Source: an uncultured Enterobacteriaceae bacterium
Lineage (GTDB): Bacteria > Myxococcota_A > UBA9042
Assembly (NCBI GenBank): GCA_964560875.1
Contig: CAZLMW010000059.1
Coordinates: 3,208 to 45,532, forward strand
DNA length: 42,325 bases
Direction of reading: 5' to 3'
How positions within the stretch are numbered: position 1 is the stretch's first letter; each line of letters begins with the position of its first letter. The translations under genes were made by a program, and so were the position numbers. Shown one piece after another: positions 22,736-23,458 of this stretch. Under the pieces are notes generated by a model. That model was not told the DNA's origin and searched no databases. It worked only from the letters and a program-made list of their open reading frames with translations.

Positions 22736-23458
22736 TCACCCCGTCCAGCGGGCGCGGTGGTCGCTCAGGTTGATGAGTCGATGTTCGAGGTTTGCCTGCT
22801 GCGGCGGGAAGTCGGCGGCGATGACGATCGCGACGGGCATCGTCTCGCGAAGCCGGTTCAGCGTGCGCCACAAGTTGGCCGCACTTGCGTGATCCATGCC
22901 GGCGACGGGCGAGTCGAGCACGAGCACGGGCGGCCGCAAGATGACCGCTCGGGCCAGCGCGACCTGGCGGCGCAGGGTGCTGGATGCCTGAGGCGGAATC
23001 ATCGCTGGTAGCGGCGGCATTGCAAGCAGCTCAAGCGTCTCGGCGGCGCGCTGATGGACCTCTTCTTCGGTCGGTTCGCGGTGGTAGCGAAACGGCAACA
23101 CCATGTTCTCGAAGAGGTTGAGGTTGCTCAGCAGGGCGCCGTTTTCGGGCATGTAGCCGATGTGGGTGCGGAGCTCTTCCAACGCGCCCTGGTCGAGCTT
23201 GGCCGGGTCTTGTTCACCGACTTGAACGCGCCCGGTCGTCGGCCGTTCACTGCCGATGATCATGCGGAGCGCCGAGCTCTTGCCGCTGCCGAGCGCACCT
23301 GTCAGCACGATGGCGCTGGCGTGCGGGAGCATGAAGCTGAGGCCTTCGAAGCGTGGGCTCACTTCGCCGGGCAAGTGCAGCGCCACCCGCTCAAAACGCA
23401 GCACCGCCGAGCTCATCGTCGGGCGCATGTGCATGTTTTCGCCGGGAAATTGGGCCAT
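22736..23458 (-). CDS. ABC-transporter ATP-binding-cassette protein (MlaF/Mkl-like) with degenerate catalytic motifs
   Basis: Walker A is intact (LTGALGSGKSS). The Q-loop Gln reads Glu (YMPENGALL). The signature LSGGQ is replaced by ASSTL (PQASSTLRRQVALARAV). The Walker-B catalytic Glu is replaced by Ser (VLVLDSPVAGMD). No H-loop His is seen. The alignment is by eye. Confidence 0.7.
   Translation of the reverse strand: MAQFPGENMHMRPTMSSAVLRFERVALHLPGEVSPRFEGLSFMLPHASAIVLTGALGSGKSSALRMIIGSERPTTGRVQVGEQDPAKLDQGALEELRTHIGYMPENGALLSNLNLFENMVLPFRYHREPTEEEVHQRAAETLELLAMPPLPAMIPPQASSTLRRQVALARAVILRPPVLVLDSPVAGMDHASAANLWRTLNRLRETMPVAIVIAADFPPQQANLEHRLINLSDHRARWTG

Follow-up and report, generated by a model that had tools for sequence, protein, structure and literature searches.

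A conserved degenerate ATPase subunit in an Mla/MCE-type operon and the case for an ABC transporter that works without ATP hydrolysis

[quoted passage not shown] This question is raised by an operon in a 42,325-nucleotide stretch of contig CAZLMW010000059.1 (the window, which here means the whole stretch of DNA that was analysed). The second gene of the operon encodes an NBD of the MlaF/MceG type, in company with an MlaE-family permease, an MCE protein and a tetratricopeptide repeat (TPR) lipoprotein. Nearly all of the ATP-splitting residues of this NBD are lost and yet the gene is kept intact in its relatives, so that the transporter probably works without ATP hydrolysis. Judged from the sequence, it seems fairly likely that the NBD is a non-hydrolysing structural or regulatory pseudo-ATPase in a trans-envelope lipid conduit.

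The original prediction had read the motifs by eye: a retained Walker A motif (GALGSGKS), Glu at the position of the Q-loop Gln, ASSTL in place of the LSGGQ signature, Ser in place of the catalytic Glu of Walker B, and no H-loop His. Four independent methods agree on this motif register. When the NBD was compared with solved structures by phmmer, the top match was MlaF of Pseudomonas aeruginosa (7ch8, E 1.6e-25), with PENGALL placed opposite FQSGALF, ASSTLRRQVALARA opposite LSGGMKRRVALARA, VLVLDSPVAGMD opposite ILLYDEPFVGQD, and IAAD opposite VSHD. A MAFFT alignment with canonical MlaF-type proteins gave the same motif columns. Alignment by hhalign of a profile of seven orthologues (the NBD and its six relatives) with a profile of 28 canonical MlaF sequences led to the same motif pairings (Prob 100%, E 1.4e-41), and the fourth method, superposition of a structural model of the NBD on MceG and MlaF, agrees with the other three. 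The register chosen by eye was therefore right. Direct reading of the DNA gave GALGSGKS, MPENGAL, ASSTLRRQ, VLVLDSPV and IAADFP. The retained Walker A motif is seen in this DNA reading and in Gly54, Gly59, Lys60 and Ser61, which are invariant in the seven orthologues. The replacements at the Q-loop, the signature and Walker B are all found in the phmmer and hhalign registers, and Ala215 is the residue aligned with the missing His. The NBD has no canonical Gln, LSGGQ, Asp-Glu or His at any other place.

The loss goes further than had been counted. In addition to the motifs described above, the aromatic residue of the A-loop appears to be lost, as the column of the canonical Tyr is occupied by Leu in the NBD and by His, Leu or Met in the orthologues. 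The C-terminal extension of MlaF is also absent, and the NBD is shorter at this end than canonical MlaFs by about 40 residues. Replacements affect five of the seven motifs involved in catalysis or nucleotide contact, and what remains is Walker A together with the Asp residues of Walker B and the D-loop. The chemical groups missing from the active site are the catalytic base (Walker-B Glu), the γ-phosphate sensor (His), the Mg/water ligand (Gln) and the clamp that holds the γ-phosphate in trans (the signature). All 28 canonical MlaFs share the Q-loop Gln, the signature Ser-Gly-Gly, the Asp-Glu of Walker B and the H-loop His without exception, but these are replaced in the NBD and its six orthologues, and the pattern is therefore not due to chance. 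A sequencing error or frameshift artefact was considered and rejected, because the identical protein is present on seven contigs and the change from Glu to Ser requires at least two nucleotide changes.

The NBD is conserved in its fold and in the surface that faces the permease. The AlphaFold2 (AF2) model has a mean predicted local distance difference test (pLDDT) score of 90.5, and Foldseek superimposes it on mycobacterial MceG (8fed_H) with a root-mean-square deviation (rmsd) of 1.5 Å (E 1.8e-19) and on MlaF of Escherichia coli (6xbd_I) with an rmsd of 1.6 Å, among more than 1,200 matches to ABC NBDs in the PDB. The Pfam family PF00005 (ABC_tran) is matched over positions 2-136 of its 137 at 73.6 bits, against a cutoff of 25. 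The score against the NCBIfam MlaF equivalog NF008809 is 74.9 bits for a cutoff of 441, and the best NCBIfam match, FtsE, is likewise under its cutoff (105 bits for 265).

The next point is whether such a protein is decaying or maintained. In a collection of 5.8 billion proteins, the identical NBD protein forms one entry, located on the seven contigs mentioned above, and four loci from four samples were retrieved. Only six orthologues were found, with identities of 52-68%; the next matches are ordinary MlaF-type proteins at 33% or less. A scan of genome contigs with the single protein returned only distant ABC ATPases, mostly from Verrucomicrobiota, with no MlaE beside them by hidden Markov model, and no orthologues. 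All six orthologues are intact open reading frames (ORFs) in the same gene order, MlaE-NBD-MCE-TPR. They share the substitutions: the Q-loop Glu is invariant in all seven members of the clade, Walker B reads Asp-Ser in six and Asp-Ala in one, and the His position is Ala or Cys in all orthologues. The signature of the six varies (ASSSL, ASAAL, AGPGL, ASRGL, STRSL and TSRAM). Around the switch region, Ala214, Phe217, Pro218, Pro219, Asn223, Leu224, His226 and Leu228 are invariant in the clade. The pN/pS of the NBD is 0.44-0.58 with saturated dS, similar to that of the neighbouring TPR, DUF790 and CobW genes. The shared changes, the common operon and the intact reading frames under purifying selection thus indicate conserved degeneracy, not decay, which answers a check that had been proposed with the original prediction. 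The NBD is a maintained protein with relaxed catalytic constraint, under purifying selection, and not a pseudogene.

The distribution of conservation within the clade is uneven. Mean pairwise identity is 0.57 over the whole NBD protein, 0.84 in the helix that follows the signature, 0.80 in the Q-loop and first helix of the helical subdomain, 0.78 in Walker B with the D-loop, 0.71 in Walker A, and 0.53 at the signature position. The groove formed by the Q-loop and this first helix grips the coupling helix of the permease in ABC transporters. Conservation is highest, then, in the permease-gripping region and the fold core. Across the orthologous loci, the identity of the NBD (52-68%) is lower than that of MlaE (73-84%), which is the best-conserved gene of the cassette. 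ABC NBDs are normally better conserved than their permease, and the faster evolution of the NBD is therefore the reverse of the usual ABC pattern.

The operon consists of four closely packed genes on the minus strand (Table 1). The permease-ATPase-MCE arrangement that had been described is borne out by the Pfam score of MlaE and by the fold and profile matches of the MCE protein, and a fourth gene, for the TPR lipoprotein, lies beyond this trio. The MlaE gene is 30 nucleotides upstream of the NBD gene, and the MCE stop and the TPR lipoprotein start overlap by 4 nucleotides. The GC contents of the three codon positions of the NBD ORF are 0.69, 0.46 and 0.83, typical of coding genes in the window, which has 64% GC overall. 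The permease matches PF02405 at 152 bits over positions 1-211 of 212, and NCBIfam TIGR00056 at 119 bits, under the cutoff. Profile scans detected no second ABC ATPase and no MlaB/STAS, MlaC or MlaA gene within the window. A scan of the operon for promoters and terminators gave no promoter-like site and fewer terminator-like sites than expected from shuffled sequence.

Table 1. Positions of the operon genes and of the NBD motifs in the window
Feature	Position	Strand	Evidence
MlaE-family ABC permease, operon gene 1, 279 aa from ATG; upstream GTG at 24346 possible	23489..24328	-	PF02405
Degenerate ABC NBD (MlaF/MceG-like, putative pseudo-ATPase), 240 aa, ATG start	22736..23458	-	ORF + Pfam PF00005, AF2, Foldseek, orthologues
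MCE protein, 400 aa: N-terminal transmembrane helix, one MCE β-barrel, ~200 residues of predicted long α-helices (putative needle)	21479..22681	-	
TPR lipoprotein, 332 aa, last operon gene	20484..21482	-	PF13424 TPR_12 at 1.6e-11
Walker A / P-loop GALGSGKS, residues 54-61, kept	23276..23299	-	read from DNA
Q-loop position, Glu105 (GAA) replaces canonical Gln	23144..23146	-	phmmer, hhalign, DNA reading
Signature (C-loop) position ASSTL, residues 158-162, replaces LSGGQ/M	22973..22987	-	phmmer, hhalign, DNA reading
Walker B VLVLDS, residues 178-183, with Asp182 retained and Ser183 (TCG) at the place of the catalytic Glu	22910..22927	-	
H-loop (switch) position, Ala215 replaces His; followed by clade motif FPPxxxNLxHxL	22814..22816	-	hhalign pairs 'A~dF' with 'SHDV'

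The MCE protein scores 20.6 bits against Pfam MlaD, just below the cutoff of 25.1. Its AF2 monomer model consists of a helix (residues 7-35), a barrel (42-140, pLDDT ~85) and helices at 144-342 (about 200 residues, pLDDT ~50). The best Foldseek matches of this model are MlaD and subunits of Mce1, and the barrel superimposes on the MlaD core with a TM-score of 0.8 and an rmsd of 2.9 Å. A profile search of the PDB found LetB, Mce1B and MlaD at 5e-13 to 3e-6; the profile also matches a 312-residue chain with a Mce/MlaD domain over residues 41-251. The N-terminus of the MCE protein, M-x-QPFKF(R/K)xxNEIVG (22640-22681, minus strand), is nearly invariant, even in the distant loci L091, L095, L098 and L099. 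It is cytoplasmic and precedes the membrane helix, a position that would allow contact with the permease or the NBD. The TPR lipoprotein carries a signal peptide followed directly by Cys (…VGVGC/SS), with the lipoboxes LLAGC, IAAC and AVGC in orthologues, and all loci of the subfamily have it in fourth place. Family scans of this lipoprotein matched no PqiC-like family or domain; TPR repeats alone were detected.

Is the window an isolated case? Homologues of the MCE protein (39-47% identity) lead to the same four-gene cassette in unrelated neighbourhoods, namely in L091 (on a 4.48-Mb contig), L092 and L094, and a homologue of MlaE, labelled by NCBI as coming from a 'Myxococcales bacterium' metagenome-assembled genome, leads to a further copy in L099. 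The NBDs of these four cassettes are 32-38% identical to that of the window, and all are without the signature and the H-loop His. They differ in what else is lost. The NBD of L094 keeps Walker A, the Q-loop Gln and the Walker-B Asp-Glu. That of L091 has the Walker A Lys and Asp-Glu but neither the first Gly of Walker A nor the Gln of the Q-loop, and that of L099 keeps Asp-Glu and has lost the Q-loop Gln. In L092 both the Walker A Lys (APPGPGRA) and the Walker-B Asp are lost; loss of the Walker A Lys is also seen in two other distant members of the cassette family, P0112 (WPQGSGSR) and P0138 (GSTLAMRA). Furthermore, when 1.84 billion representatives were scanned with the orthologue profile (HMMER), the best 150 matches included about 33 with a single domain. 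All but one of these have a degenerate signature, most are without the His and several without the Walker A Lys, and the Walker-B Glu position is Glu, Asp, Ser, Ala or Gln. Four of them were looked up, and each adjoins an MlaE gene, an MCE gene or both.

A metagenome scan with the family motif NLxLPLRYH gave 80 loci, a sample biased towards the family by construction, with MlaE directly upstream of the NBD in 66 of them. The motifs are fully canonical in two of the 80, and an LSxGM signature is the sole difference in 40. The Walker-B Glu is naturally replaced by Gln, with no His, in 19; the signature and the His alone are missing in 14; and the Q-loop Gln is missing besides these two in three. 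One locus has a degenerate signature and no Walker-B Glu with the His kept, and in one everything is missing. Even so, it is clear from this sample that MlaE-linked NBDs have recurrently lost catalytic motifs, and that the clade of the window stands at the extreme of a graded series. At every locus examined, a dedicated NBD gene is kept in the operon. It is conceivable, with somewhat less than an even chance, that ATP hydrolysis was abandoned by an entire radiation of MlaE/MCE transporters, in Myxococcota-like bacteria and others not yet cultured, with the NBD kept as a structural or nucleotide-sensing plug and this locus as the most derived form. If this were true, nature would here provide a symmetric ABC transporter with both ATP sites dead, and the MlaE-MCE core would be able to transfer lipids, or to keep a lipid bridge open, with no power stroke from ATP.

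A further, separate clade of NBDs linked to MlaE (L101, L106, L110, L123, L137, L138 and similar) has the Walker-B sequence LDQP, the signature LSLEM and no H-loop His. In several of its loci, about 1 kb lies between MlaE and the NBD; in L106, the one locus inspected, the gap is occupied by a gene for a metallo-β-lactamase fold.

How might a complex with such an NBD be arranged? With a single MlaE gene, the complex should be symmetric (2:2). On the MlaE dimer, two NBD copies might dock via the conserved groove of the Q-loop and helical subdomain, and the stoichiometry of MlaE, NBD and MCE protein would be 2:2:6. Docked in this way, the NBDs would serve as a plug with a structural or regulatory role, and their binding of Mg-nucleotide by way of Lys60 and Ser61 of Walker A, Asp182 and Glu105 may have been preserved. 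The substrate, presumably lipid, would cross the pocket of MlaE and the tunnel of the MCE protein in an equilibrative or gated flow, or in one driven otherwise than by ATP, and would not be pumped. A pseudo-ATPase or scaffold role, one of the options of the original prediction, is judged to fit the conserved degeneracy best. Its statement that the protein should bind nucleotide is now less certain: Walker A is kept, but the A-loop aromatic seems to be gone and distant relatives of the cassette lose the Walker A Lys.

Several points weigh against a non-hydrolysing NBD of this kind. The supposed loss of hydrolysis is deduced from motifs alone. All seven members of the clade have, without exception, the Walker A Lys and Ser, the Asp of Walker B and the Q-loop Glu; this suggests that the binding of nucleotide or Mg has kept its importance, and slow or unconventional catalysis is thereby conceivable. 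Walker-B mutants of MceG from Mycobacterium tuberculosis destabilise the Mce complexes (PMC9947336), so that in canonical systems a dead NBD need not make a good scaffold. The helices of the MCE protein are modelled at low confidence (pLDDT ~50), and the trans-envelope needle is therefore an architecture drawn by analogy. In addition, a canonical MlaF that services this MlaE may lie outside the 42-kb window.

The second of these points leads to the alternative that survives best, although we regard it as unlikely: the NBD would be a slow or unconventional ATPase, in which Glu105 takes the place of the Walker-B Glu as the carboxylate that polarises water or holds Mg2+, and the system would be an ATP-driven transporter of low turnover. 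Besides the invariance of Glu105, Lys60, Ser61 and Asp182 in all seven orthologues, the same change from Gln to Glu is present in P0103 and P0104 (MPETGAL and MPERGAL, with LDDP), which have lost the Walker-B Glu, and members with the Walker-B Glu mostly keep the Q-loop Gln; that is, the two positions co-vary. This co-variation is equally explained, however, by joint relaxation after hydrolysis was lost. Moreover, the signature that acts in trans is lost and is not conserved even among the orthologues, the H-loop His and seemingly the A-loop aromatic are gone as well, and related cassettes tolerate the loss of the Walker A Lys. A site of CFTR with the same Asp-Ser Walker B is non-hydrolysing (PMC7756269).

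It is less probable still, and to us quite doubtful, that a canonical ATPase of the MlaF/MceG type, encoded elsewhere, is the partner of the NBD or takes its place, in a heterodimer or as a shared ATPase. There are precedents: MceG is encoded away from the MCE operon and is common to Mce1 and Mce4 (PMC9947336), and heterodimers in which one NBD is degenerate are frequent among ABC transporters (PMC7756269). The search, too, covered 42 kb of the genome. In the known heterodimers, however, the degenerate NBD keeps a consensus signature, with which the active site of its partner is completed, whereas here the signature is the feature most universally lost; with the signature lost in the NBD, both composite sites of a heterodimer would be defective. 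The single mlaE gene implies a symmetric permease dimer. Neither the window nor the flanks of the related loci contain a second ABC ATPase, save an unrelated FecCD-ABC fusion in L085, and the operons have kept their dedicated NBD gene, as described above. A heterodimer with an ATPase encoded elsewhere, which had also been suggested, is disfavoured by the most consistent loss of the signature and by the single MlaE gene. Finally, that the gene is the decaying, functionless remnant of a dead Mla operon, as its faster evolution than that of the MlaE and MCE genes and the drift of its signature might suggest, is scarcely credible and to all intents disproved by the conservation seen: seven lineages with saturated synonymous sites have the ORF intact, the identical protein lies on seven contigs, third-position GC is of the coding type and pN/pS resembles that of neighbouring genes, long stretches including FPPxxxNLxHxL are invariant, the AF2 fold is confident, and distant copies of the cassette outside this synteny retain the gene as well.

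A gene for a CobW/COG0523-type G3E GTPase (24461-25576, plus strand) is divergent from the operon. This adjacency is kept in the closest loci (L085, L088 and L089) but not in the distant L091, L092, L094 and L099, and probably reflects shared ancestry rather than function. The GTPase was considered as an energy source or regulator in the cassette and was rejected, since it is adjacent solely in the four closest loci. On the other side, a gene for an XPB/ERCC3-like helicase with a damage-recognition domain (17899-19263, plus strand) is followed by an overlapping DUF790 gene (19076-20461, plus strand), and this pair is kept beside the cassette in close relatives.

Farther away in the window, an ORF of 1,949 aa (27292-33141, minus strand) encodes a secreted, extremely Cys-rich protein with dozens of CGDGxC-type repeats. 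It has at least seven thrombospondin type-3 repeats and a C-terminal choice-of-anchor J domain, and nothing else was matched in Pfam or NCBIfam. Three SPFH/Band-7 genes are located within 11 kb, two of them overlapping in tandem (5122-6261 and 6258-7298, plus strand) and the third at 14221-15840 (minus strand). An ORF of 757 aa (38942-41215, minus strand) has a third-position GC of 0.92 and matches no Pfam family, with a faint match to a Bdellovibrio-type MIDAS adhesin model.

MCE-type ABC systems themselves are known; what would be new is such a system whose NBD is a conserved pseudo-ATPase. Searches of the full-text literature found no description of a degenerate NBD of the MlaF/MceG type, and absence there is no proof of absence. 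In the passages searched of a phylogenomic survey that identified MlaF by synteny, catalytic motifs are not discussed (PMC10665443). Surveys of MlaF by synteny alone would miss the absence of catalytic residues in many of these proteins. Annotation is affected too, since the label given is either 'ABC transporter ATP-binding protein' or 'phospholipid/cholesterol/gamma-HCH transport system ATP-binding protein'. The energisation of MCE/Mla systems and the direction of lipid movement are debated, and an MlaF-type subunit that is ATPase-dead but maintained would be a natural test case. The cassette, otherwise complete with permease, MCE protein and lipoprotein, could show what the MlaE-MCE core does without hydrolysis, and what role the NBD has beyond catalysis, whether in stability, gating or nucleotide sensing. 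Furthermore, the graded series, from variants of the signature only, through the clade with Walker-B Glu replaced by Gln, to loss of the Walker A Lys, can be read as a naturally occurring path of pseudo-enzyme evolution.

How does this system compare with those already described? MlaF of the MlaFEDB complexes of E. coli, P. aeruginosa and Acinetobacter baumannii (6xbd, 7ch8 and 7d06) is the closest solved relative in sequence and has a nearly identical fold. It too is encoded beside an MlaE permease and an MCE protein, and the region GALLxxLxxFENVxxPLRxH after the Q-loop is present in both. In MlaF, however, the Gln, the LSGGM signature, the Walker-B Glu, the His and the A-loop Tyr are present; the first four of these are replaced in the NBD, and the Tyr appears to be. 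MlaF also has the C-terminal extension, and the window is without the MlaB/STAS, MlaC and MlaA genes. The short MlaD of MlaFEDB differs from the 400-aa MCE protein with its long helical region.

The best structural match of the NBD is MceG (Mkl) of the mycobacterial Mce1 and Mce4 systems (8fed), and the Mce1 subunits, which carry an MCE domain as well as a helical needle, are the best matches of the MCE protein. All canonical motifs are present in MceG, whereas the residue equivalent to its Walker-B Glu is naturally Ser in the NBD. The Walker-B mutations D188N and E189Q of MceG abolished transport by Mce1 and Mce4 and destabilised the complex (PMC9947336). The mycobacterial systems have six MCE genes; the window has one, whose product presumably forms a homo-hexamer.

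The closest described architecture is that of PA3211-PA3214 of P. aeruginosa and MpcEFDA of Brucella, in which the order is permease, NBD, single-MCE needle protein and lipoprotein (PMC13631591; PMC12436622); the cassette has this order too, with a putative needle. By the descriptions in these papers, which set the two systems apart from the present one, PA3212 is labelled an ATPase and MpcF is called MlaF-homologous. Their lipoprotein forms a PqiC-like octameric ring, in contrast to the TPR protein here, and MpcE has a STAS domain that is absent here.

As for the active site, NBD1 of CFTR (ABCC7) has the same replacement of the Walker-B Glu by Ser together with loss of the H-loop (PMC7756269). 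Degenerate sites of this type hold ATP for minutes without hydrolysis (PMC7756269). In CFTR, TAP1, TM287 and ABCC1, degeneracy is confined to one composite site of the two, and the NBD concerned retains a consensus signature for the active site. Here the single NBD gene implies that both sites are degenerate, with the signature lost too. As for the proposed function, the analogy is with PqiABC and LetAB, which are trans-envelope MCE conduits with no ATPase and thus without ATP hydrolysis; for LetAB, passive as against proton motive force-coupled operation is still debated (PMC13017536). Neither PqiA nor LetA is related to ABC permeases, and both lack an NBD, whereas in the operon of the window the ABC machinery has been kept in place and seems catalytically disabled.

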